Positions 5,958-52,340 of a stretch of DNA of 64,000 nt are shown piece after piece. The notes under the pieces are model-generated. The model saw only the letters and a list, made by a program, of their open reading frames with translations. It did not search any database and was not told the origin of the DNA. Both the position numbers and the translations under genes were made by a program. The DNA is taken from NCBI GenBank assembly GCA_963674745.2, contig CAXXDV010000003.1, positions 1,952,001-2,016,000 on the forward strand. The letters run 5' to 3'. Every line of letters begins with the position of its first letter. Position 1 is the stretch's first letter. The DNA is from Desulfosudaceae bacterium (lineage in GTDB: Bacteria; Desulfobacterota; Desulfobacteria; Desulfobacterales; Desulfosudaceae).

Positions 5958-7158
5958 TACCGGCTATTTCCATAAGGGCATCAATGTGCCTGTCCCAGGA
6001 GTACCGCGATTCAACAAAAGCGCGTGTTTTCCGCCGCAAGCCATTAACCACTCCGGGATCAAACATCAGCCTGCGGCATTTCGCGTCGATCAACCGGGCC
6101 ATGGCCTTTGCTGAAGTGCTCTCAAAAAGAAAACCGGAATCAAAGGATTCGAGAATTTCTCTGGTCCCCCCTACCGGCGTGCCCAAAACAGGTGTCCCCG
6201 AAGCCATGGCTTCCAGGGTTACCAGGCCGAATCCTTCCAATTCGAGGGTCGGCAGAATGAACAGATCCGCCATGAGATAATAGTCCGGCAGCGTGGCCTC
6301 ATCGATAAACCCCGTAAAAAAAACATGCGGATTTAATCCGGCCCGGTCGACCTGTCCAATCAGGGACTCTCTCATCGGCCCATCTCCGCCGATCACCAGA
6401 TAAACTTCCGGCAGCTTCGAAACGACCTCCTGCATGGCCTCCAGGAGCGCTGAAAGGCCCATCCTCGGTTCCAGGTTCCGTAAAGTAAATAATATGATTT
6501 TATCTGCGGGAAAGCCCATACGCTGCCGGACAGCCGCCCGGTCGTTACAGGGGCTGAACCGCATCAGATCAACCCCTCCGGGAACAATTGAAATTAACTC
6601 ACCCGGAATTCGGTGACTGAGCTGCAGTTTTTCTTTTGTATAATCGCTTAATACAATGATCCGGTCAGAATCCTTTAAAGCGCTCTTTTCCATCCTTTTG
6701 CGAATCAGGGACTGAACTTTTACAGCCAAACGACTGCTGAGACCGGAGGCCATTACTGTCCTGGAAAGGTATTCCTCATGCCAGAGGGAATGACAGGTAT
6801 ACAACTTTTTTGCTGTGTTTTTTTTTGCGGAAGACAACACAGCGCATGCGGTCAACGGCTGATGAAAAAACAAGCGGTCAAACCTCAGATCCTGATTCAA
6901 CTGCTGGAATAAACGGCCAGCGTTTTTAAACGTATCGGCTACAAACCTGACCGGATACCTGTTATCAGCCGGATAACGCCATTCGGTAACACCGGATATC
7001 TCCGCCGCCTCTTTTTTATGGATATCCGGCAGCCAGCGGGTTATCAGGTGCACCTCGTGCCCGGAAGCGGCAAGGCGGGTCGTCTGTTCATACAGAACCC
7101 GCTCGGCGCCGCTTCCGACCCGTGCGATGGAAACATCCGCTGCAAACAGAATTTTCAC
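5944..7158 (-). CDS. GT4 glycosyltransferase
   Basis: EGFGLVTLEAMASGTPV. Confidence 0.92.
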   Translation of the reverse strand: MKILFAADVSIARVGSGAERVLYEQTTRLAASGHEVHLITRWLPDIHKKEAAEISGVTEWRYPADNRYPVRFVADTFKNAGRLFQQLNQDLRFDRLFFHQPLTACAVLSSAKKNTAKKLYTCHSLWHEEYLSRTVMASGLSSRLAVKVQSLIRKRMEKSALKDSDRIIVLSDYTKEKLQLSHRIPGELISIVPGGVDLMRFSPCNDRAAVRQRMGFPADKIILFTLRNLEPRMGLSALLEAMQEVVSKLPEVYLVIGGDGPMRESLIGQVDRAGLNPHVFFTGFIDEATLPDYYLMADLFILPTLELEGFGLVTLEAMASGTPVLGTPVGGTREILESFDSGFLFESTSAKAMARLIDAKCRRLMFDPGVVNGLRRKTRAFVESRYSWDRHIDALMEIAGNADG

Positions 7159-7238
7159 ATCTTTCCCTTTTATGTTAACACTGAAACGTCTGCCGCCATT
7201 ATACTTTTCATTCGTTTTATTGACATTTTGTCAACTCA

Positions 7239-8225
7239 TTAGATTGGCGCCAACCTTTTTGAAAAAATGTCCAAATCATTGGCTACCATTTCTTGGACAA
7301 GCGCTTTGAATTTCACCTTAGGCGCCCAATTAAGTTTCGCTTTGGCCCGGGTAGCATCACCGCACAGAATATTCACCTCCGCCGGGCGATAAAACTGATC
7401 ATCAATCACAACATAATCCTCAAAATTTTTATCAATCTCAGCAAAAGCCGCTTCTAAGAATTCACGCACCGAATGGGTTTCACCTGTTGCAATGACGTAA
7501 TCGTCAGCTTCACTCTGCTGCAGCATCAACCACATCGCTCGTACGTAATCACTTGCATGCCCCCAGTCCCGCTTGGCATCCAGGTTCCCCAACCGTATTT
7601 CTTTGTCGATTCCCAGTTTAATTTTTGCCACACCCGAGCTAATTTTCCTTGTTACAAATTCCATCCCCCTCCTTGGAGACTCATGGTTAAAAAGAATTCC
7701 TGATAATGCAAAGAGGCCATATGCTTCCCTGTAATTGCGAGTCAGTTCAAACCCGGCGATTTTCGAAATACCATAGGGAGATCGAGGATGAAAGGGCGTC
7801 TTTTCATTCTGAGGGACCTCCTCCACCTTTCCGAACATTTCACTGGAACCGGCAAAATAAAATCGACAATGTGGGGCCTGCCGCTTAATGGATGAGAGCA
7901 TGTAATGGGTGCCGTTCAAATTCGTATTGATAGTTGAAAACTCATCCTCAAATGAATAGGACACATAACTCTGCGCAGCCAGATGATAGCATTCATCAGG
8001 CTTCAGCTCCGAAATGATATTAAAAATGCTGGCATAACTCTCCATGGAGGCACTGTGGATATGAATCCGGTCGAGAAGGTGGCGTACTCGCCACATTCGC
8101 AACTCAGGTGTCTCCAGTGCCACACGCCGAACGAGACCATGCACTTCATATCCCTTTTCCAGTAACAGCTCTGCAAGGTAGCTGCCATCCTGTCCGGTAA
8201 TACCCGTAATCAATGCTTTTTTCAT
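7239..8225 (-). CDS. gmd: GDP-mannose 4,6-dehydratase
   Basis: ALITGITGQDGSYL, SPYGISK, FNHESPRRG and RDWGHA. Confidence 0.96.
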   Translation of the reverse strand: MKKALITGITGQDGSYLAELLLEKGYEVHGLVRRVALETPELRMWRVRHLLDRIHIHSASMESYASIFNIISELKPDECYHLAAQSYVSYSFEDEFSTINTNLNGTHYMLSSIKRQAPHCRFYFAGSSEMFGKVEEVPQNEKTPFHPRSPYGISKIAGFELTRNYREAYGLFALSGILFNHESPRRGMEFVTRKISSGVAKIKLGIDKEIRLGNLDAKRDWGHASDYVRAMWLMLQQSEADDYVIATGETHSVREFLEAAFAEIDKNFEDYVVIDDQFYRPAEVNILCGDATRAKAKLNWAPKVKFKALVQEMVANDLDIFSKRLAPI

Positions 8226-9307
8226 TTAATTATCCCCAGCAATCTCTGAATATCACGAATATAGGGTTTCCATGCTATGCGCCCTTTCAACGCAGACGTC
8301 CATACCAACCCCTCATCCACATGTGCCTGGTAGGTTTTTTGATTCTCAAGCTTTTCAAAAGCCGTCAACCATTTCTGCGGCTCAAATGGGTCGGCAGTCA
8401 ACGCTTTCCTCCCTGTTGTCTCCGTCAGAACGGCGATATCACTGACAACCGCAGGCGTTCCGCATGCCATAGCCTCCAAAGGTGGATAGCCATACCCTTC
8501 TGCTGTTGAAGGTTGCGCCAGACAAAACGCCTGCCGATAGAGCCCCGGCAAATCCTCATCAGGTACAAAATCAAGCCAGTGCAATCTTTTTTCGGCCTGT
8601 GCATTACGCCAGTATAACCGGTTTGCAGGCGGGACGCCGACGAAAACGATTTTTCTTCTCAACTGCATGGCGCAGGCCAGGATAACCCCCAAATTTTTAT
8701 GGGGCAGGCCATTTCCGACTACCATGATGTATCCCGGATCAAGCCGGTGTTCAGCCAGGATTTTTTGATCCCGTTCATCTTCGCAAAGAGTAAAATGAGC
8801 CTCCAAACCCGGATAACGGATTGAAAAATCCCCCTTGAGCTCTACCAATTTGACTGTTTCCCCATGACTGTAAACCGAATCGAACCATGTCAGGTCACTC
8901 CTTTTCAACGCCTTCTTGAGACGCCAGGTATCGAACAGAACACGCCCCCGTTTTTTATACAGCGGATGAGTTAAATCCAGCACATCATGAACGGTATTGA
9001 TGCATGCGCAATGGCACCCCCAAAGCGGCAGTTTGGGATACGGGCTAATAAAGAGTTTATTGTTCCGTGTCATTTCAGTCAGGCGCTTTTCAGATCCAAG
9101 GAACGATTTTGGCAACCATATCGTTTCAATCCGCTTACAACCTTTCAGTCGTAATGGGAGTTCACCGCCAGAATTCATACCAAGTATGATCCGCTCAGCA
9201 ACACCACTATCGTCAAGTGCGTCAATAAGCCCAACAAGGACACGGCCTATGCCGGTTAGGCGAGCAGGGGAAAATTCCCTGGCATCAATCAGAATCTTTC
9301 CTGGCAT
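8222..9307 (-). CDS. GT4 glycosyltransferase (MtfB/WbpY-like)
   Basis: TGIGR N-terminus, PHKNL and EGYGYPPLEAMACG. Confidence 0.88.
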   Translation of the reverse strand: MPGKILIDAREFSPARLTGIGRVLVGLIDALDDSGVAERIILGMNSGGELPLRLKGCKRIETIWLPKSFLGSEKRLTEMTRNNKLFISPYPKLPLWGCHCACINTVHDVLDLTHPLYKKRGRVLFDTWRLKKALKRSDLTWFDSVYSHGETVKLVELKGDFSIRYPGLEAHFTLCEDERDQKILAEHRLDPGYIMVVGNGLPHKNLGVILACAMQLRRKIVFVGVPPANRLYWRNAQAEKRLHWLDFVPDEDLPGLYRQAFCLAQPSTAEGYGYPPLEAMACGTPAVVSDIAVLTETTGRKALTADPFEPQKWLTAFEKLENQKTYQAHVDEGLVWTSALKGRIAWKPYIRDIQRLLGIIK

Positions 9308-37078: not shown

Positions 37079-38464
37079 CTAAAGCCCGCCGCGAACCGGA
37101 CGGACCAACGCATTTGCATACATATAAGTCTTATCTACGCCACTCGGGCTGTTACCGCTGTCAAAATGAACAAACCATGCTGAGCTCGCATCAGGGGCAT
37201 GAGTCGTTGAGGACCAGAAAATGTTGGAGTAGTAGGAAATTGAACTTGTTTTTGGAAAATAATTCTCATTTATGGCCTGCTGATATCTTCCATAATCCAC
37301 AAGAGACCTTAATTCCTTGATGTTCGGCATCCGCCAGTCGGAATAACCGGCCAAAGTCATGTCCTGGCAATACCTCAAGGCGTCCTGCCAGGTCATGGCC
37401 TCCGAAGATGAATCCCGCGCCCACATCAGATGCTTACCATTCTCGGTAACCGTGACCGTGCCGTCGCCATTATCCGTATATATCGGCGATGACCCGATCC
37501 CACGAACGGCACGCACGGAAAAGTTTTTTTGTTTATCGTTCTTGACGATGCCGCCGTCATCAAAATCCAAAGACCAGGCGGAACTGGCATCGGCGGCATT
37601 CATCGTGGCAGACCAGTAACTGGCATCTATCGTGTTCGGAAAAAAATCCGTATTAATCGCCGGACTGCGGCCAATAAAATTTGCGATTGAATTCAATTCC
37701 TTTATGGTCGGCAAACGCCAGTCTGAAAATCCTCCGAAATTTTCGTCGTTCAGTTGAGCCATAAACGCGTCACCGGCACGATCCCAGTCCGATACCAGGT
37801 TTTTGTCATGGATGGTACCGTCTTCGGTTTTGACCTCCCAGATCAGACCGGTCAAATTATCCCTTACCATGGCCCAGTTAAGGGCGTCTTTTGTTAAAGG
37901 GAAACCACCTGCGTCCAGCCTGGTAAAGGGTGAACTGATTGTGGCATAACAGGCATCCTGACCGTAAAAGTCCTCGCCAGGTGACGGGCAGGGATAAAGG
38001 AAATAAATCGTATCATAGCATCGGGTCTGGCCGGTATCAGAAACAAACGAGTTGCCCAGCAAACACGCTTCATCATTTATGCCGTCACCGTCATTGTCTA
38101 TCCCGTCATCGCAGACTTCCGGCAGGCAATCCTCATCAACCAGCCCGTCGCAGTCGTTATCAATGCCCACACAAAATTCTTTTGCCTGAGGATTAATCGT
38201 CGGGTCTCTATCGTCACAATCCAATCGTTTGCCGCAGCCTTCTTCAACATAAAAGCCATCTCCGTCATTGTCTGTGCAGCCGACAGAATCTTCTTTTTGC
38301 ACACTATTGCCGGGACCGCTGCTGTCGCCAAAACTGCAGCCGGACGTGCCGACGAGAATCACCAATAAAAGGCCCGTCATCATCACGAAAAAGACAGAAC
38401 GAACCTTGTTAAAAATCTCTGATATGTGTTTCATGGACGTCTCCTTTTGGGGCGATGCTATCAT
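37079..38464 (-). CDS. Putative lipoprotein with Asp/Cys-rich metal-binding repeats and two DUF1566 (Lcl C-terminal) domains
   Basis: Lipobox-like TSGC, DCDD..P and DGIDNDxDG repeats, GxSDWRxPxIKEL twice, VRAVR/VRPVR. Confidence 0.87.
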   Translation of the reverse strand: MIASPQKETSMKHISEIFNKVRSVFFVMMTGLLLVILVGTSGCSFGDSSGPGNSVQKEDSVGCTDNDGDGFYVEEGCGKRLDCDDRDPTINPQAKEFCVGIDNDCDGLVDEDCLPEVCDDGIDNDGDGINDEACLLGNSFVSDTGQTRCYDTIYFLYPCPSPGEDFYGQDACYATISSPFTRLDAGGFPLTKDALNWAMVRDNLTGLIWEVKTEDGTIHDKNLVSDWDRAGDAFMAQLNDENFGGFSDWRLPTIKELNSIANFIGRSPAINTDFFPNTIDASYWSATMNAADASSAWSLDFDDGGIVKNDKQKNFSVRAVRGIGSSPIYTDNGDGTVTVTENGKHLMWARDSSSEAMTWQDALRYCQDMTLAGYSDWRMPNIKELRSLVDYGRYQQAINENYFPKTSSISYYSNIFWSSTTHAPDASSAWFVHFDSGNSPSGVDKTYMYANALVRPVRGGL

Positions 38465-44940: not shown

Positions 44941-45675
44941 ATGAAGTACAGAATCCTGCTGATTATCGCTGCCGTTTTAATAGCCGGAGGCGTTGCCTGT
45001 GCCGAAGATGAAAAGGCGTGGCGTGGATCAGGAGAAGTGGGATTTCTGATGACCACCGGGAACTCGGAAACCGAGTCGGTTAACACTAAAGCGGGCCTGG
45101 AATACGAAAACGCCCACCTGTTGAGCGAGATTAACCTGGCAGCCCTTTACAGTTCTGAAGAAACGGAAACCGATGGAGAAACCGAGAAGACCACTTCCGC
45201 GGAAAAATATAACGCCGACGCCAAAATCGGCTATAAGTTCCGACCGGTTGATTATGTTTTTTTCAACGCCGCCTATGAAGACGACCGGTTCAGCGGATAT
45301 GATTACCGCAGCAACTATGCCGCCGGCTACGGACGAAAGCTGGTCAACAACGATACCGTAAAGCTGAACATTGAAGTCGGCCCCGGTTACCGCTATGACA
45401 AGCTTGATAATGGCCAAACGGAAGATGAAACCGTATTCCGTGGATACCTCATGTTTCATTTTCAACTTTCCAAACAGGCCGCTTTTCAGCAGGAGATTAC
45501 GCTTCTGGCCGGTCCGGACAACACCGGCACCAAATCCATAACCGCCTTAAAATCTCAGATCGCGGGCGCACTGTCCTTGAAAGCAACATACACGGTGGAC
45601 CACAATGCTCATGTTCCGGACGACAAAGCGCACACGGACACGGAAACCGCACTGACATTGGTTTATGATTTTTGA
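44941..45675 (+). CDS. DUF481/YdiY-family outer-membrane beta-barrel protein
   Basis: Signal peptide, TTGNSET, DRFSGYD, C-terminal YDF and AGGAGG RBS. Confidence 0.88.
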   Translation: MKYRILLIIAAVLIAGGVACAEDEKAWRGSGEVGFLMTTGNSETESVNTKAGLEYENAHLLSEINLAALYSSEETETDGETEKTTSAEKYNADAKIGYKFRPVDYVFFNAAYEDDRFSGYDYRSNYAAGYGRKLVNNDTVKLNIEVGPGYRYDKLDNGQTEDETVFRGYLMFHFQLSKQAAFQQEITLLAGPDNTGTKSITALKSQIAGALSLKATYTVDHNAHVPDDKAHTDTETALTLVYDF

Positions 45676-45685
45676 TTTTTTTTGA

Positions 45686-45840
45686 GGATTCAAGGATTCA
45701 AGGGTTCAAGGGGTCCAGGGGCCAAGGTTCGGGGTTCAGGGTTCAGGGTTCAGGGTTCAGGGTTCAGGGTTCAGGGTTCAGGGTTCGGGGTTCAGGGTTC
45801 GGGGTTCGGGGTTCAGGGTTCAGGGTTCGGGGTTCGGGGG
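45686..45840 (+). repeat. Heptamer tandem repeat (GGGTTCR)15 preceded by degenerate GGRTTCAA octamers
   Basis: 15 consecutive GGGTTCA/GGGTTCG units at 45732-45836. Confidence 0.95.
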
Positions 45841-45842
45841 TT

Positions 45843-45984
45843 GTAGGGGCGACCCGCGGTCGCCCGATAAATGGGCAACCACAGGGGGGTGCCCCCTACG
45901 GGCCGAAGAAAGCGTTCATGAACAATGTAGGGGCAGGCCCCTGTGCCTGCCCGGTGAAGGGCAACCACGGGGGGTTGCCCCAAC
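45843..45984. repeat. Two inverted pairs of GTAG-type REP elements (REPIN-like doublets)
   Basis: GTAGGGGCGACCCGCGGTCGCCC...GGGCAACCACAGGGGGGTGCCCCCTAC (45843-45899) and GTAGGGGCAGGCCCCTGTGCCTGCCC...GGGCAACCACGGGGGGTTGCCCCAAC (45927-45984). Confidence 0.85.
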
Positions 45985-46090
45985 GTTAGCAACAGAGCCG
46001 TCCTGATGGACTCGTGAATTATGCGGGCAAGACACTGAAACCGAATAGAATGTCCGGACTAAAGTACGACTGAAAGAGAGGTCTTTTTTG

Positions 46091-46885
46091 ATGAAATGGT
46101 CAGATGAAGCTGAAGAGGCCCTGAAAAAAGTGCCTTTTTTTGTCAGGAGCAAGGTCAGAAAAGCCATCGAAAAACAGGCAGCCGATCAGAATAAAAGCCG
46201 GGTAACCCTGGATGACGTCATGGCCGCCAAAAAACGGTTTCTCAACAAAATGGCCGAAGATGTACGGGGTTTTCAGGCGGACACCTGTTTCGGCCCGTCC
46301 GGATGCCCGCATCGGACAGTGGCATGCGGCAACCTCATGCAGCAGGTGGAAGATCGACTGGTCAGGGCCGACCTGCTCGGCTTTCTGAAACAGACTGTTG
46401 GTGAACAATTGAAATACCACCATGAATTCCGGGTGTCCGCGGCTGAATGCCCCAATGCCTGTTCCCAGCCCCAGATCAAGGACATCGGCATCATCGGTGC
46501 GGTTGTGCCTGAAATCACCGACCAGGCCTGTACCGGTTGTGAGTCATGCCTTGATGCCTGTCCGGATAACGCCATCACCATGGATCATGACCGGAATATT
46601 CCCGTTATCAGCACCGCTGACTGCCAGAAATGCGGGAGATGTATCACCGCCTGCCCCACCGGCACCATCATGGCCGGCGAAAAGGGTTTCCGGGTGCAGC
46701 TGGGCGGACGCCTGGGCCGGCATCCCCGGCTGGGACTGGAGCTTCCGGGTATCCTGACGGAAGACCAGGTACTGGAAGTACTGGACAATGCCCTGCGGTT
46801 CTATAAAAACCGGTCGCAAAAAGGTGAACGGTTTTCCCGCCTGCTAGAGGAAGAAGACCTGGAAACAGTTTTTCCCGAACGATGA
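46091..46885 (+). CDS. Small siroheme/4Fe-4S sulfite-reductase-like (Dsr-LP/AsrC-like) protein with an N-terminal PCP_red-like domain
   Basis: W..EAE..L.KVPFFVR N-terminus, CX5C...CPNAC siroheme motif, two CxxCxxCxxxCP motifs, GGRLGRHP and GERF. Confidence 0.85.
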   Translation: MKWSDEAEEALKKVPFFVRSKVRKAIEKQAADQNKSRVTLDDVMAAKKRFLNKMAEDVRGFQADTCFGPSGCPHRTVACGNLMQQVEDRLVRADLLGFLKQTVGEQLKYHHEFRVSAAECPNACSQPQIKDIGIIGAVVPEITDQACTGCESCLDACPDNAITMDHDRNIPVISTADCQKCGRCITACPTGTIMAGEKGFRVQLGGRLGRHPRLGLELPGILTEDQVLEVLDNALRFYKNRSQKGERFSRLLEEEDLETVFPER

Positions 46886-47739: not shown

Positions 47740-49065
47740 ATGATTTCAATTTTAAAATATGACGGCCACCAGACCATACAAAAAGCCGTCAATCTGGTGA
47801 ACGGGTTTGAGCGTTTACGCACCGGCCACCGTGTCATGATCAAACCCAATGCGGTCGGCGCCGACCCCAACATGCCGTATTTCGGCATGATGACCACGGC
47901 CACCGTGGTGGAAGGTATCGTTCTGGCACTCCTGGATTTCGGCTGCGACCCGAAAAACATTACCATTGGAGACGGGGGCGCCGCCCGGCGGGAATTGGGG
48001 TTGAGCACCCGTGTCATTCTGGCCGCCATGGGCATGGCCCATATTGCCCGCAAGTACGGGGTGAAGGTGATGGATTTCAACCAGGCACCCACGACCCGTA
48101 TCAAATGCGGCGATCTTGATCTGGATATCGCAAAACCGGCGCTGGAGACGGACTTCCTCATCAATGTGCCGGTACCCAAGTATCATGACCAGACCCTGGT
48201 CACCTTAAGCCTGAAAAATCTGAAAGGCTGCCTGGCCCCGGATTCCAAGCGTCGTTGTCACACGGCCCGGCTGGAGGATCATATTGCCGCCTTTAACACG
48301 GAAATCCCCTGTCACCTGACCGTGATGGACGGCATATATTTTCTTCGCGGCGGCGGCCCCATGATCGATTCCGGAGAGCCCTGTCGAAAAGACATGATCA
48401 TGGCCGGGACGGACCGCATTGAAATGGATTCAGCGGCAGCCAGGATACTGGGTGTTGAACCCGAAAACGTGCGTCACCTGACCGCATATGCGCGCCTCAA
48501 AGAACGGGAGAGTGACATCGGGCGGGTTGAGTGGATCGGAGACAACCCTGAACACTTTCGTGAACCGCCTTTCGGCGGCACAATGGAAGTCTTCGGCCGG
48601 AACTTTCAGCGGGCTGATATAACCGGCATTCATCTCCAGCCGCCGGGCCAGACCTGGTGTACCGGCTGCAACATCAGCCTGCGGGCAGCGCTGTACATGC
48701 TCTGTAAAGACAATCCCGGTCAGGATTTTGGCGGCGTTGAGATCCTGTGCGGTAAGCAAACCCGGGCGGATGGCCACCATGAACGAACCATTCTGTTCGG
48801 TGACTGCCCGATCAAAACCAATGCCAAAAACAAAAAAATCAGAAACCGCCTGGAAATCCCGGGTTGTCCGCCATCGTTCATCAAGTCCTATCCGGCCATG
48901 ATGCGGTTTCTCCAACCAACCCTGAAAGCCTGGTGGCAGGTCACTAAAAACCTTGCCCTGGGGGGGCTGACCCATACCGGCCTGTATCGGATGCGATTTC
49001 CTTTTTTTGACGAAATGACCCGTTCCGCGGAGTTTGATCCGCTTGATTTTTATCGTAAATCCTAA
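47740..49065 (+). CDS. DUF362 domain protein with a Cys-rich C-terminal domain
   Basis: VMIKPN, NVPVPKYH, LSLKNLKG; C-terminal CTGC, GDC and GCPP. Confidence 0.85.
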   Translation: MISILKYDGHQTIQKAVNLVNGFERLRTGHRVMIKPNAVGADPNMPYFGMMTTATVVEGIVLALLDFGCDPKNITIGDGGAARRELGLSTRVILAAMGMAHIARKYGVKVMDFNQAPTTRIKCGDLDLDIAKPALETDFLINVPVPKYHDQTLVTLSLKNLKGCLAPDSKRRCHTARLEDHIAAFNTEIPCHLTVMDGIYFLRGGGPMIDSGEPCRKDMIMAGTDRIEMDSAAARILGVEPENVRHLTAYARLKERESDIGRVEWIGDNPEHFREPPFGGTMEVFGRNFQRADITGIHLQPPGQTWCTGCNISLRAALYMLCKDNPGQDFGGVEILCGKQTRADGHHERTILFGDCPIKTNAKNKKIRNRLEIPGCPPSFIKSYPAMMRFLQPTLKAWWQVTKNLALGGLTHTGLYRMRFPFFDEMTRSAEFDPLDFYRKS

Positions 49066-49101
49066 TAAATCAACAAAAACTGAATTTCGAAAGACATATT
49101 T

Positions 49102-50064
49102 ATGAAAAAATGGCTGCATAACAACCTGCGTTGCCCGGAGTGCCTTCCGGACGAGGTGCCCCTCACACTCGACAGCGATGACCAGGATCAGGATGAGATC
49201 ATCAACGGTCAGCTGATTTGCCCTGAATGCCGGCAGACATATCCTGTTGAAAACGGCGTGGCCATTGTCCTGCCCAGGCGGACAAAACCGCTCCTGTCAA
49301 ACGGAACCGGTTACAACTCCTGGGGCATGCTGTCCTCATACCTGTGGAGTCATTACGGTGAATTTTTCAATGATCCGGAAGCCACCGACGCCTACCGGCT
49401 ATGGTCGTCGTGTTTTATCGAATCCCAGGGATATGCCCTTGATATCGGCTGTGCGGTGGGCCGTTTGTCGTTTGAGTTGAGCAAAACCCACGCCCGCGTC
49501 ATCGGGATCGACACATCGCTTTCTTTTATTACAAAAGCAAGAACCCTGCTGCAGCAAAAACGACTTGAATTCGATCTGATAAAAGAAGGCCTGATTACAG
49601 AAAAACGTGCCTGTGACCTGGATCCGAACTGGAATTATGAAGGGATCGAGTTCATTGTGGCCGATGCCCTGGCCCTGCCATTTGCCCGCAACTTCTTTGC
49701 CACCGTGGCTTCGGTCAATGTTCTGGAAAAAGTTTCCCATCCCCGGCATCACCTGATCGATGTCGATCGGGTGTTGCGGGAACAAAGGGCCATGTTCGTA
49801 TTCGCCGATCCCTTTTCATGGGATGAAAACGTGTGCCCGCCGGAAATGTGGCTGGGTGGGACGGACAACGGAAAACATCCCGGCCGGGGGATGGATAACA
49901 TGACGGAATATTATCTGGGGAAGGACGGCCTTTTTGACCCGCCTTTTGAAATTCTGGATAAAGGGAAAGTCCTCTGGAAGATCAGAAAAACCGAGAATCT
50001 TTGGGAATACATCAATTCACAATATATTGTAGGCATCAGAAATAACCGGGAGAACAACGATTGA
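49102..50064 (+). CDS. Trm112-like Zn-ribbon plus SAM methyltransferase resembling the OvoA C-terminal mercaptohistidine N-methyltransferase domain
   Basis: CPEC..CPEC..YPV.NG; Y...HYG, ALDIGCAVGRLSFEL, GIDTS..FI, EG.I, PFSW.E..P.E.WLGG and W.IR.T. Confidence 0.75.
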   Translation: MKKWLHNNLRCPECLPDEVPLTLDSDDQDQDEIINGQLICPECRQTYPVENGVAIVLPRRTKPLLSNGTGYNSWGMLSSYLWSHYGEFFNDPEATDAYRLWSSCFIESQGYALDIGCAVGRLSFELSKTHARVIGIDTSLSFITKARTLLQQKRLEFDLIKEGLITEKRACDLDPNWNYEGIEFIVADALALPFARNFFATVASVNVLEKVSHPRHHLIDVDRVLREQRAMFVFADPFSWDENVCPPEMWLGGTDNGKHPGRGMDNMTEYYLGKDGLFDPPFEILDKGKVLWKIRKTENLWEYINSQYIVGIRNNRENND

Positions 50065-52268
50065 AAACCAGACATGGCATTTGCGGTATCTGTTTCCACA
50101 GCCCTGGATGCGGTGCCATCGTTCATTTTGATGACGACGGCCGGATAGTGCGGCTGACGCCTGACCCGGAAGCGCCGGCAGGCAAAGTTCTGTGTCCTAT
50201 CGCGGACAGCGTTCAGGAAATCGTCTATTCGGACAAACGGCTCAAACAGCCGTTAAAACGGATCGGCGCCAAAGGTTCATATGACTTTGAACCCATCACC
50301 TGGGACGAAGCCTATGACATCATTGTGGACAGGTTAAACGACCTGAAAAAACGCCACGGGCCGGAGACGGTGGGATTCTACGCGGGGACAGGCTCATATG
50401 AACGGGCCTTCAAGGACGTGTTTCAATTAAAGGGGTCGGAAATATACCTGGCTTCCAGCATCCTGTTTCCGTTCGGCTCACCCAATACGTTCGGCGTTGG
50501 CGCCCCCTGTTACACCTCCCTGGGCGTCCTGGCACCCAAGCTGACCATGGGATGCCGGCACATCGACATGTTTTCAGATATCGACAATTCCGACCTTATC
50601 CTTGTCTGGGGGACGGACCCCTCCCGGTCCACGCCACCGGAAATGTTCCAGCGGATCCGGGTCGCCGCCGAAGAGGGCGCCGAGATCATTGTCATCGATC
50701 CCCGCAAAACCAAATCCGCCAACCTGCCGGGCAGCCGCTGGGTCCCCATCCGGCCGGGTTCTGACGGCGCACTGGCCCTGGGTTTGGCCCACGTGATGAT
50801 CAGGGACAATCTTTACGACAAAGCCTTTGTTGATGAATGGACCATCGGGTTTGATGCATTTGCAGAATATGTAAAGAATTTCACACCGGCGCATGTGTCA
50901 AAAATTACGGGGGTATCTGAAAACATCATAGCGGACCTGGCGGAAAACATCGCTGAAGCCGAAGGCGCCTCTTATGTCATGTATACCGGACTGGAATATA
51001 CCAAAAGCGGCGTTCAGAACATCCGGGCGGTCATGGTCCTGTGGGCATTGGCCGGTCAGCTGGACGTACCCGGAGGCCGCTGTTTTCTAGGGCAGGACAG
51101 AATGATCCCCTTGAACAGAAGCCGGCAGCTGGAAACGCCCGGGTTTGACCGGTCGATTGCCGGGGGCAAGTTTCCGGTCTATTCCCACTTCTGCGGCGGC
51201 GAGCCCCACGCCAATCTCCTGCCGCAGGCGATCGTTGAAGGCGATCCCTACAAAATCAGATCCTTGTTTGTTCTGGGCGCCTCCCTTATAACATCCTGGC
51301 CAACCCCCGAACGCTGGCGCAAAGCCCTGTCCGATCTGGAATTTTTGGTTTGCATTGATCTGCAGCTGACAGCCGACGCGGCTTATGCCGACATCGTGCT
51401 GCCCGCCGCGACCGCCTTTGAGCAGGAATCCTACTGCTATTATGGAAATGCCATCCGTTTCCGGGAAAGAATGATCGCCCCCGTGGAACAGGCCCGGCCC
51501 TGTTACGACATCCTGGCGGAACTGGCGCAACGACTGGGGTACGGCGATTTGTATCCGCAAAGCACAAAAGAACTGATGGACTATGTCCTGGGCGAATCCG
51601 GTTTTACCTTTGATGACATGATGAATGCGGACCGGTATGTGCTGCGGATGCCCGGCCGCCCCATGGAATATCAAAAATGGGAAAAGGGGTTGCTGCGAAA
51701 GGACGGTCAACCGGGATTCGACACCCCTTCGGGAAAATTCGAGATCGGTTCGACCACCCTTGAAGATTATGGATATGACGCTATTCCCCGGTATGAAGAA
51801 TCCGATGAGACACCGGCCAGCCGACCGGATCTGCTTGGCAAATATCCCTTAATCCTGGGTACCGGTCCCTTCAAGCCGGACATGAAATCCTGTTTCCGGG
51901 CCATACCGCGCTTCATAGAAAAATATCCCTGCCCGCTGATTGAGATCAACCCGGCCGACGCCGAAGAACGCGGTATCAATACCGGCGATCCCGTCAGCGT
52001 CAAAACCGTCCGTGGCGCCATTATCATGCAGGCCATGGTGACCGACACCATCATGCCCGGTTTTGTCTACGCCCAGGTGGGCGGCGGCGGGCCGCTCGGC
52101 CCGGAGGCCTGGCAACAGGCCAACGCGAATACGCTGACCGATCTGGATCAGTTTGATCCGATCTCCGGCTTTCCCGTCTATAAGACCCTGTTGTGCCAGG
52201 TCAAAAAAAAACGCCGTAAACGCAAGGGCATCGCCGTTCAAGACCCGTCCCTGGGATGCGTGGGCTGA
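50061..52268 (+). CDS. Mo/W-bisPGD (DMSO reductase superfamily) enzyme, acetylene hydratase/MES-like, cytoplasmic
   Basis: CGICFHSPGC...LCP Fe-S motif, ITWDEA, GSPNT...C ligand, ADIVLPA and INPADAEERGI; no Tat signal; TTG start overlaps the upstream TGA. Confidence 0.88.
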   Translation: MKTRHGICGICFHSPGCGAIVHFDDDGRIVRLTPDPEAPAGKVLCPIADSVQEIVYSDKRLKQPLKRIGAKGSYDFEPITWDEAYDIIVDRLNDLKKRHGPETVGFYAGTGSYERAFKDVFQLKGSEIYLASSILFPFGSPNTFGVGAPCYTSLGVLAPKLTMGCRHIDMFSDIDNSDLILVWGTDPSRSTPPEMFQRIRVAAEEGAEIIVIDPRKTKSANLPGSRWVPIRPGSDGALALGLAHVMIRDNLYDKAFVDEWTIGFDAFAEYVKNFTPAHVSKITGVSENIIADLAENIAEAEGASYVMYTGLEYTKSGVQNIRAVMVLWALAGQLDVPGGRCFLGQDRMIPLNRSRQLETPGFDRSIAGGKFPVYSHFCGGEPHANLLPQAIVEGDPYKIRSLFVLGASLITSWPTPERWRKALSDLEFLVCIDLQLTADAAYADIVLPAATAFEQESYCYYGNAIRFRERMIAPVEQARPCYDILAELAQRLGYGDLYPQSTKELMDYVLGESGFTFDDMMNADRYVLRMPGRPMEYQKWEKGLLRKDGQPGFDTPSGKFEIGSTTLEDYGYDAIPRYEESDETPASRPDLLGKYPLILGTGPFKPDMKSCFRAIPRFIEKYPCPLIEINPADAEERGINTGDPVSVKTVRGAIIMQAMVTDTIMPGFVYAQVGGGGPLGPEAWQQANANTLTDLDQFDPISGFPVYKTLLCQVKKKRRKRKGIAVQDPSLGCVG

Positions 52269-52340
52269 TTCGGAACTGAATATTTCATCGGGAACTGAAA
52301 ACCGGAAAAACAACCGATTTGCCGATTTTCTTATTTAGGC

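Follow-up and report, generated by a model that had tools for sequence, protein, structure and literature searches.

An MES-like metallopterin enzyme encoded beside an OvoM-like methyltransferase in Desulfobacterota: a candidate oxygen-independent route to N-methyl-thiohistidine

A 64,000-nt stretch of the genome of a Desulfosudaceae bacterium (GenBank assembly GCA_963674745.2, contig CAXXDV010000003.1, positions 1,952,001 to 2,016,000 of the forward strand), which we call the window throughout, carries a gene pair that spans only 3.2 kb and encodes an S-adenosylmethionine (SAM)-dependent methyltransferase, P0002, and a molybdenum/tungsten (Mo/W) enzyme of the bis-molybdopterin guanine dinucleotide (bis-MGD) type, P0003. 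As judged from the sequences, this pair probably provides a two-enzyme route, independent of oxygen, to an N-methyl-thiohistidine, which may be ovothiol A. Sulfur chemistry on the histidine ring is suggested because two independent lines of evidence point to it: the Mo/W enzyme is the sister of MES, the metallopterin enzyme that forms ergothioneine anaerobically in Caldithrix abyssi (CaMES; Beliaeva & Seebeck 2022, PMC9516567), and the methyltransferase resembles those acting on thio- and selenohistidines. That the product is exactly ovothiol A is a more tentative proposition, since MES acts at C2 of the ring. The two genes and their features lie at the following positions of the window:

49102..50064, + strand: SAM-dependent methyltransferase P0002, 320 aa (Pfam and the TIGR04345 profile)
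49111-49257, + strand: Trm112-like zinc ribbon of P0002, residues 4-52 (Pfam Trm112p, 4.2e-09)
49327-50028, + strand: OvoA-C/OvoM/OvsM-like catalytic domain of P0002, residues 76-309 (Pfam Methyltransf_11, 3.6e-13, and TIGR04345)
50061..50064, + strand: TTGA overlap of 4 bases, methyltransferase stop and Mo-enzyme start (sequence and coordinates of the open reading frames, ORFs)
50061..52268, + strand: Mo/W bis-MGD enzyme P0003, 735 aa, TTG start, cytoplasmic (Pfam, alignment to an MES fusion, trees)
50082..50195, + strand: [4Fe-4S] motif of P0003, Cys8, Cys11, Cys17 and Cys45 (alignment to an MES fusion; 65/65 full-length orthologues)
50508..50510, + strand: Cys150 of P0003, predicted Mo/W ligand (aligned with 2e7z, 2vpw and an MES fusion; invariant in alignment A2)
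52203..52265, + strand: basic C-terminal tail of P0003, residues 715-735, KKKRRKRKGIAVQDPSLGCVG, with Cys733 at nt 52257-52259 (orthologue comparison)

The methyltransferase and Mo/W enzyme genes form a conserved pair

Scanning a genome collection with the methyltransferase alignment yielded 80 related loci, all of them in Desulfobacterota, from the genera Desulfonema, Desulfoluna, Desulfatibacillum, Desulfobacula, Desulfobacter, Desulfosarcina, Desulfatiglans and Dethiosulfatarculus and also from Desulfocapsaceae; among the carriers in culture are Desulfonema magnum, Desulfoluna spongiiphila, Desulfatibacillum alkenivorans, Desulfosarcina variabilis and Desulfobacter curvatus. At 73 of these loci an orthologue of P0003 (67-76% identity) lies directly 3′ of the methyltransferase gene on the same strand, the median gap between the two being 28 bp by tblastn. 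The remaining seven comprise four loci that end within 400 bp of the methyltransferase, one with the Mo gene directly upstream, and two with room for a Mo gene and none present. In the window the two genes overlap by TTGA, with a GGGAG Shine-Dalgarno-like site 9-10 nt 5′ of the TTG start of the Mo-enzyme gene, and the overlap suggests that their translation is coupled.

When 818 ORFs from 81 loci were clustered in a survey of the flanks, no widely recurring gene appeared beyond the methyltransferase and the Mo enzyme, and the next-largest flank clusters, seen at 12 and 10 loci, contain sensor kinases and an Rv2258c-like methyltransferase, respectively. Arsenic, selenium, transporter or histidine-degradation genes do not recur in the flanks of the 80 loci.

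The same picture emerged from a sample of 401 genomes of the phylum. P0003-type genes occur in seven of them (69-73% identical to P0003 in the six other genomes, in frames of about 740 aa), and the pair is adjacent in all seven carriers, so that the co-occurrence for which the first-pass annotation had proposed a search of anaerobe genomes is borne out in both surveys. MES-type fusions are present in 25 of the genomes (49-53% identical to P0003; frames of 1125-1192 aa with a single exception of 962 aa), and there is no overlap at all between the seven pair carriers, the 25 genomes with MES fusions and the ten with true OvoA, a pattern that is descriptive only because related genomes are not independent.

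Canonical OvoA was itself found in 10 of the 401 genomes of this mostly anaerobic phylum (loci L113-L122; genomes G145, G255, G102, G066, G260, G160, G234, G135, G309 and G166). Nine of these are full-length, with frames of 706-745 aa that score 337-355 bits on the C-terminal model, and one is a standalone frame of 298 aa.

P0002 resembles thio- and selenohistidine N-methyltransferases

The first-pass annotation had recognized in P0002 the motif series of the OvoA C-terminal methyltransferase, and all the motifs that it quoted occur in the translations, both those of P0002 (YLWSHYGE, ALDIGCAVGRLSFEL, GIDTSLSFI, EG, PFSWDENVCPPEMWLGG and WKIRKT) and those of the Mo/W enzyme (in the segments SILFPFGSPNTFGVGAPCY and YVMYTGLEYTKSGVQNIRA). 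Besides Trm112p and Methyltransf_11, Pfam also gives Methyltransf_25. The best NCBIfam model for P0002 is ovoA_Cterm (TIGR04345), matched with an E-value of 1e-32 over profile positions 6-238 of 242 at a score below its cut-off, and the next model other than Trm112 reaches 2e-07; the suggested comparison of an OvoA-C model with a generic one thus comes out in favour of the former. TIGR04345 is the top family for all 16 members of the P0002 family (best member 1.4e-39), which score about 90-114 bits on it in the genome scan.

Sequence and fold comparisons led to the same relatives. A profile of the P0002 family searched against all PDB sequences matched OvsM (2.4e-27), OvoM (1.2e-25) and OvoA (5.7e-25), followed by matches from 7.8e-11. 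An AlphaFold2 model of P0002 (predicted local distance difference test, pLDDT, 84.5) retrieved only 8khq, 9bxh/j/k and 9bxl/m/n at Foldseek ranks 1-10, with E-values from 3.5e-21 to 1.5e-19 and target-normalized TM-scores of 0.78-0.82 to OvsM and OvoM, and the next match stood at 2.3e-10. About ten orders of magnitude thus separate the OvsM, OvoM and OvoA matches from other methyltransferases.

In a comparison of ten true OvoA-C domains, 15 members of the P0002 family and 17 members of a sister subfamily, 22 positions keep the same residue (in at least 90%) across all three groups, including Y71, Y80, H84, R121, E125, E162-G163, N206, P237, W240, W250 and R295. According to the ovoselenol preprint, OvsM methylates 5-selenohistidine and has no activity on histidine.

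The source genome (5.55 Mb, 99.96% complete) contains no OvoA N-terminal domain (TIGR04344) above the cut-off, the best match reaching 41 bits vs 400, and no match to the EgtD-type PF10017. Both genome-wide scans agree with the first-pass annotation, which had reported neither an Fe(II)/O2-dependent OvoA synthase nor an EgtD-type trimethylase neighbour.

P0003 belongs to a standalone sister family of MES

P0003 contains the Pfam domains Molybdopterin (8.8e-43) and Molydop_binding (5.9e-19). The Pfam scan found no desulfurase (Aminotran_5) domain in it, as already stated in the first-pass annotation, and all 65 full-length orthologues, a count that leaves out three partial ORFs and one unrelated paralogue, are likewise standalone proteins without a fused desulfurase. 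The nearest solved structures are acetylene hydratase (2e7z, 9.2e-58) and PsrA (2vpw, 4.8e-53), and the best NCBIfam rows, Fdh-alpha, DmsA and PhsA, all remain far under their cut-offs (PhsA NF012032, 239.8 bits vs 694).

We searched P0003 exhaustively against 1.84 billion cluster representatives. Its best match beyond its own cluster, and second-best overall, is P0125 (E 2e-248), a 1139-aa fusion of a molybdopterin enzyme with Aminotran_5 that shares 53% identity with P0003 in an alignment of 716 residues with 6 gaps. The functional residues of CaMES named in PMC9516567 include Cys14/17/21/48, Cys153 and Cys1135; in P0125, Cys18/21/25/52/157, Lys955 and Cys1077/1100/1138 reproduce all nine functional CaMES residues at offsets of +4 and +3. 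Ten loci with such fusions were fetched and nine of them read, the gene in L096 not having been called by the ORF caller; eight of these nine have a PF10017 EgtD gene (E about 1e-100) immediately beside the fusion. Because the CaMES residues are reproduced and EgtD is adjacent, the fusions fall under the published definition of MES.

Two phylogenies, a FastTree tree of 91 rows from which two long-branched own-genome paralogues were dropped and an IQ-TREE tree of 36 rows (LG+G4, rooted on 7 outgroup rows), placed the P0003 family (support 100) as the sister of the EgtD-linked MES clade (99), with a support of 99 for the joint node. The grouping with MES that the first-pass annotation had proposed therefore stands as far as the immediate sister position is concerned and fails for membership, as P0003 lies outside the MES clade itself: each of the two clades is supported at 99-100, and the P0003 family forms a separate clade on a long stem of 0.44. 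Paralogues of P0003 from the source genome are placed elsewhere in the trees. The alignment has 230 columns that are conserved in each of the two families, with the same residue in 197 of them and different residues in 33. From these relationships P0003 is predicted to be a standalone MES-like metallopterin module acting as a thiohistidine synthase.

The 401-genome sample also yielded six matches to more distant standalone relatives of P0003 (41-44% identity). Standalone members of the MES superclade with the same range of identity to P0003 are found at L103-L108; they lack a Cys tail, an adjacent methyltransferase and recurring neighbours.

Metal-binding residues and a cysteine-bearing tail

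Cys8/11/17/45 and Cys150 of P0003 align with Cys18/21/25/52/157 of P0125, that is, with CaMES residues 14/17/21/48/153, and Cys150 also aligns with Cys-containing segments of acetylene hydratase 2e7z and PsrA 2vpw. The Fe-S loop reads CG(I/L)C-(F/Y)H-SPGCG in all 65 orthologues (CGIC-FH-SPGCG in P0003) and CGIC(S/P)AGC in MES, the Phe12-His13 insertion being specific to the P0003 family. In acetylene hydratase the Asp that follows the second Fe-S cysteine is catalytic. In the HMMER alignment Phe12-His13 of P0003 stands opposite Asp-Ile of 2e7z, so this Asp is missing from P0003. Because the Fe-S motif starts at residue 8, a Tat signal is not possible.

At the other end of the protein, a tail ending in LGCxx after a basic stretch is present in 64 of the 65 full-length orthologues. 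All ten MES fusions examined have a penultimate Cys (...CR end), and the corresponding residue of CaMES, Cys1135, is essential, its mutation lowering ergothioneine production 2000-fold (PMC9516567). Cys733 of P0003, three residues from the end, is analogous to CaMES Cys1135 by position and not homologous to it by alignment. In the AlphaFold2 model of P0003 (pLDDT 80.2), residues 721-735 have a pLDDT <50 and no secondary structure. We infer that the tail acts as a persulfide-carrying swinging arm, taking the place of the fused desulfurase and the relay cysteine of MES. Aminotran_5 is matched five times in the source genome, at four loci; two of the five matches adjoin each other and probably represent one gene. 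These class-V cysteine desulfurases could supply the sulfur for the tail.

The DUF362 gene lies outside the conserved unit

Upstream of the pair lies a co-oriented neighbour:

47740..49065, + strand: DUF362 protein P0001, 441 aa (Pfam DUF362, E 4.7e-41)

The first-pass annotation had read this gene, the methyltransferase and the Mo/W enzyme as one three-gene unit. The three co-oriented ORFs, the 36-bp gap between the first two and the TTGA overlap between the last two were all found where it had placed them, but the inclusion of the DUF362 gene did not survive the comparison with related loci. None of the 80 loci has a DUF362 gene beside the methyltransferase, the single distant match lying 3.4 kb off, in L075. 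In the congener G402, the DUF362 orthologue (80% identical) is located on contig C5 and the pair (59% identical for the methyltransferase and 71% for the Mo enzyme) on contig C1. Collinearity with G402 runs through uvrC, uvrB, the cyclophilin gene and the DUF362 gene and ends exactly at the 3′ end of the latter, while the pair locus of G402 matches the window at 49090-52320 only. The DUF362 gene is part of the upstream syntenic block and lies outside the conserved unit; as a third member of the module it is ruled out by the 80-locus survey, the separation on different contigs in G402 and the break in synteny. Because the pairing is conserved, the DUF362 gene is unlinked and synteny stops at its 3′ end, we regard the unit as a mobile two-gene cassette.

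Neighbouring genes and the source genome

On either side of the cassette the neighbouring gene is on the minus strand: a cyclophilin gene on one side and, on the other, a TPR/PMT_2 gene that is convergent with P0003. Predicted promoter-like sites (4 vs 5.3 expected) and terminator-like sites (13 vs 7.2±2.9 expected) were uninformative. Compared with G402 (L147), the window contains an extra block at 44941-46885, between a TehB-like methyltransferase gene and the cyclophilin gene, which comprises a DUF481 gene, a 105-aa ORF and a PCP_red/NIR_SIR/4Fe-4S protein at 46088-46885. Adjoining uvrC, a 461-aa protein encoded on the minus strand (37079-38464 of the window) combines two Lcl_C domains with a MopE-type metal-binding motif.

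Two kinds of neighbour were seen at subsets of the related loci. At ten of the 80 loci an Rv2258c-like protein of about 358 aa (HTH_65 winged helix-turn-helix plus Methyltransf_31) is encoded directly upstream of the pair and co-oriented with it (L014-L018, L020, L026, L034, L035 and L089; e.g. L020:5797-6873), and one may speculate that it adds further methyl groups. At L057, L061, L063, L065, L066 and L067, four of which are titled Desulfatiglans, a Peptidase_M19-like gene is found upstream of the pair in divergent orientation (e.g. L066:5063-6085); these genes share 39-41% identity with the M19 genes at L127 and L140, and beside them is encoded a protein of about 279 aa (e.g. L066:4223-5062) with a metallo-beta-lactamase-like motif, as judged by eye.

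The dsrA match in the source genome (621 bits vs a cut-off of 393) fits a sulfate or sulfite reducer. The genome has 15 matches to the dimethyl sulfoxide (DMSO)-reductase family. Two formate-dehydrogenase-like matches to this family, with one in-frame TGA each, suggest the use of selenocysteine:

G000:C2:53687-55156: formate-dehydrogenase-like match with in-frame TGA
G000:C3:2042670-2044130: formate-dehydrogenase-like match with in-frame TGA

Evidence that weighs against a thiohistidine route

Several observations weigh against a thiohistidine product, or against ovothiol A in particular. P0002 scores 113.6 bits on TIGR04345, below the cut-off of 170, whereas true OvoA domains from the same phylum reach 337-355 bits, and it is 25-31% identical to ten true OvoA-C domains from this phylum. 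Because of the sub-cut-off score and this identity, we place P0002 in a distinct Trm112-fused subfamily of the thio-/selenohistidine N-methyltransferase group and not as an OvoA-C equivalog; the earlier designation as an OvoA-type methyltransferase is thus right as to the best match by profile, sequence and fold and too narrow as to the subfamily. The 33 columns that distinguish P0003 from MES include the FH insertion close to the active site and Pro149, the neighbour of the ligand Cys, and the substrate of P0003 could therefore differ from that of MES. MES, moreover, sulfurizes C2, not C5. Sulfur transfer between polypeptides is inefficient in CaMES and a desulfurase in cis is obligatory (PMC9516567), which by analogy implies that the standalone P0003 would need a separate sulfur supply.

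The sister methyltransferase subfamily adds further points of this kind. The 401-genome scan found 31 genomes with a below-cut-off methyltransferase of this subfamily, about 40% identical to P0002, and we read 20 such loci, two of them from relatives outside the sample. At nine of the 20 the methyltransferase is directly followed by a different Mo enzyme, similar to acetylene hydratase and Psr (type B), of about 687 aa, which starts TVCRLCSACCP, lacks the Cys tail, has 2e7z as its best solved structure (1e-74) and falls outside the MES superclade in the trees. At three of the 20 its neighbours on the two sides are a B12 radical-SAM gene (about 675 aa) and the gene for a Peptidase_M19 dipeptidase, and at the remaining eight it has no recurring partner.

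L128, L132, L137, L138, L139, L141, L142, L144 and L146: type B pairs of Trm112-fused methyltransferase and Mo enzyme (e.g. L141:5918-6937 and 6962-9019)
L127:5016-9178, L140:4818-9184 and L143:4970-8475: B12 radical-SAM, methyltransferase and M19 genes

These pairings with other partners imply that a link to thiohistidines may not hold for the methyltransferase family at large, and they lowered our confidence in the thiohistidine reading. Either the sister methyltransferases share a common substrate class that is supplied by a second Mo-enzyme clade, or the family is broader than thiohistidines. A hybrid locus (L091:4732-7939) combines the two arrangements: a tail-bearing MES-like enzyme, 71% identical to P0003, precedes a methyltransferase of the sister class that is 51-53% identical to those of type B and 40% identical to P0002. 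Near the B12 radical-SAM locus of L143 there is a class-V aminotransferase gene. Candidate selenocysteines in the sister methyltransferases of G407 and G409 were rejected, the TGA within the match being the gene's own stop according to the ORF ends.

Proposed mechanism and alternative explanations

In the mechanism that we propose, we infer what the substrate and the product are, where the sulfur comes from, whether it goes to C5 or C2 and in which order the steps take place. A sulfur donor acting in trans, for which one of the class-V cysteine desulfurases of the source genome, sulfide or polysulfide are candidates, would load a persulfide onto Cys733 of the flexible basic tail. The tail would then hand the sulfur to the bis-MGD Mo/W centre, with Cys150 as ligand, to give a metal-sulfido species as in the proposal for MES. 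A ring carbon of histidine or N-methylhistidine would attack the sulfido group to form the C-S bond, and the general base for this step may be His13, a family-specific residue next to the Fe-S cluster. Finally, the OvoM/OvsM-like methyltransferase would use SAM to methylate a ring nitrogen.

Among the alternatives, the one that fares best, although we regard it as unlikely, assigns the same enzyme classes to another substrate, with transfer of sulfur (or selenium) or reduction of a metalloid oxyanion followed by methylation of the product; the substrate might then be another imidazole or heterocycle, a peptide-bound residue, or an arsenic, selenium or tellurium species. This would accommodate the pairing of sister methyltransferases with a non-MES Mo clade or with B12 radical-SAM and Peptidase_M19 genes, a weak ArsM_2 match in 16 of 16 methyltransferase members (best E 1.8e-09), the score of P0002 under the OvoA-C cut-off, and the 33 family-specific differences from MES with the FH insertion. 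It is difficult to reconcile with the 53% identity of P0003 to MES and the 197 of 230 jointly conserved columns that are identical, with the fact that the only strong structural relatives of P0002 are thio-/selenohistidine N-methyltransferases, and with flanks in which no arsenic, selenium or transporter genes recur at the 80 loci.

Considerably less probable is a role in salvage or catabolism, in which the Mo/W enzyme would reverse or exchange sulfur on imported thiols of the ovothiol or ergothioneine type. The MES reaction is reversible in cells, as seen from 34S exchange between ergothioneine and trimethylhistidine (PMC9516567), but the partner of P0003 is a SAM methyltransferase of biosynthetic type, directly upstream at 73 of 80 loci, the flanks hold no recurring transporter or histidine-degradation genes, and the conserved persulfide-type tail Cys fits the delivery of sulfur.

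It is more improbable still that P0003 is an ergothioneine synthase minus its desulfurase that acts on imported trimethylhistidine (hercynine), the methyltransferase being functionally unrelated. Although MES is its closest relative, the source genome has no EgtD, the P0003 family is a separate clade, in the 401-genome sample its genes never share a genome with an MES fusion, and their adjacency to the OvoM-like methyltransferase is near-universal. Hardly credible is an ordinary respiratory or detoxifying enzyme of the DMSO-reductase family (polysulfide/thiosulfate reductase or acetylene hydratase type) with a methyltransferase adjacent by chance, as the best solved structures and sub-cut-off NCBIfam rows might suggest, since the Fe-S motif starts too near the N-terminus for a Tat signal to precede it, genes for electron-transfer or membrane subunits are missing beside the enzyme's gene, Phe-His occupies the position of the acetylene hydratase Asp, the pairing is kept at 73 of 80 loci and the own-genome paralogues fall elsewhere in the tree.

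Relevance of a possible metallopterin route to thiohistidines

To our knowledge, OvoA, which depends on O2 and iron, provides the only known route to ovothiol. In the passages searched, a September 2026 review likewise describes no ovothiol route beyond this enzyme. Ergothioneine already has two anaerobic routes, EanB and MES. In the full-text literature, with subscription journals outside the search, we found no link between ovothiol or thiohistidine and a molybdopterin or tungsten enzyme except in the MES paper, and no description of the pair of methyltransferase and Mo enzyme turned up in this search, in PMC9516567 or its supplement, or in the passages of the review. The MES homologues listed in that supplement include Desulfobacteraceae and Desulfomonile; the words ovothiol and OvoA are absent there.

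It is conceivable, and we put this forward tentatively, that the cassette encodes a pathway that would be the first to make ovothiol A, or else a new N-methyl thio- or selenohistidine, independently of oxygen; in it a standalone Mo/W enzyme charged through its own C-terminal Cys arm sulfurizes histidine directly and an OvoM-like methyltransferase finishes the product. If so, the one metallopterin enzyme family in which C-S bond formation is known would gain a second reaction type, and MES-type chemistry would be seen to operate without a fused desulfurase. Desulfobacterales would then possess a dedicated low-molecular-weight thiol, a candidate redox buffer for sulfate reducers, whose small thiols are poorly known, and the finding would bear on whether thiohistidines predate atmospheric oxygen. 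On this reading the type B pairs, with their second and unrelated Mo-enzyme clade, hint that metallopterin-dependent formation of C-S (or C-Se) bonds arose more than once and is wider than MES.

Comparison with known systems

EanB, the rhodanese-type anaerobic ergothioneine synthase, resembles the proposed route in forming an imidazole C-S bond without O2 from persulfide or polysulfide sulfur (PMC9516567); it has an unrelated fold and cofactor and is compared with P0003 here by description. Acetylene hydratase (2e7z) and PsrA (2vpw) share the Cys-ligated metal with P0003, and acetylene hydratase also the N-terminal [4Fe-4S] cluster. The Asp after the second cluster Cys of acetylene hydratase is replaced by Phe-His in P0003, and unlike PsrA/PhsA, P0003 has neither a Tat signal nor adjacent genes for a PsrB-type Fe-S or a PsrC-type membrane subunit.

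The 5-thio- and 5-selenohistidine N-pi-methyltransferases OvoA-C, OvoM and OvsM (PDB 8khq, 9bxl-n, 9bxh-k) are the only strong matches of P0002 by profile, sequence and predicted fold, and P0002 has the motif series in common with them along the entire catalytic domain. P0002 differs from them in its additional N-terminal Trm112-like zinc ribbon and in its partner, which is a Mo/W enzyme instead of an O2- and Fe-dependent sulfoxide or selenoxide synthase (OvoA, OvsA).

The closest parallel is MES (CaMES, Caldithrix abyssi, PMC9516567). There the pyridoxal-phosphate-dependent cysteine desulfurase is fused to the metallopterin module, whereas P0003 has none and carries a predicted relay Cys on a short basic tail; P0003 also has the FH insertion in the Fe-S loop and 33 conserved positions unlike those of MES. 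The partner of MES is the N-alpha-trimethylase EgtD, which is lacking in the source genome, and here it is an OvoM-like ring-N methyltransferase. Common to both systems are a bis-MGD module with 53% identity, the four Fe-S cysteines and the Cys metal ligand, an analogously placed Cys 2-3 residues from the C-terminus, a cytoplasmic location in anaerobes and the pairing with a methyltransferase of a histidine pathway.

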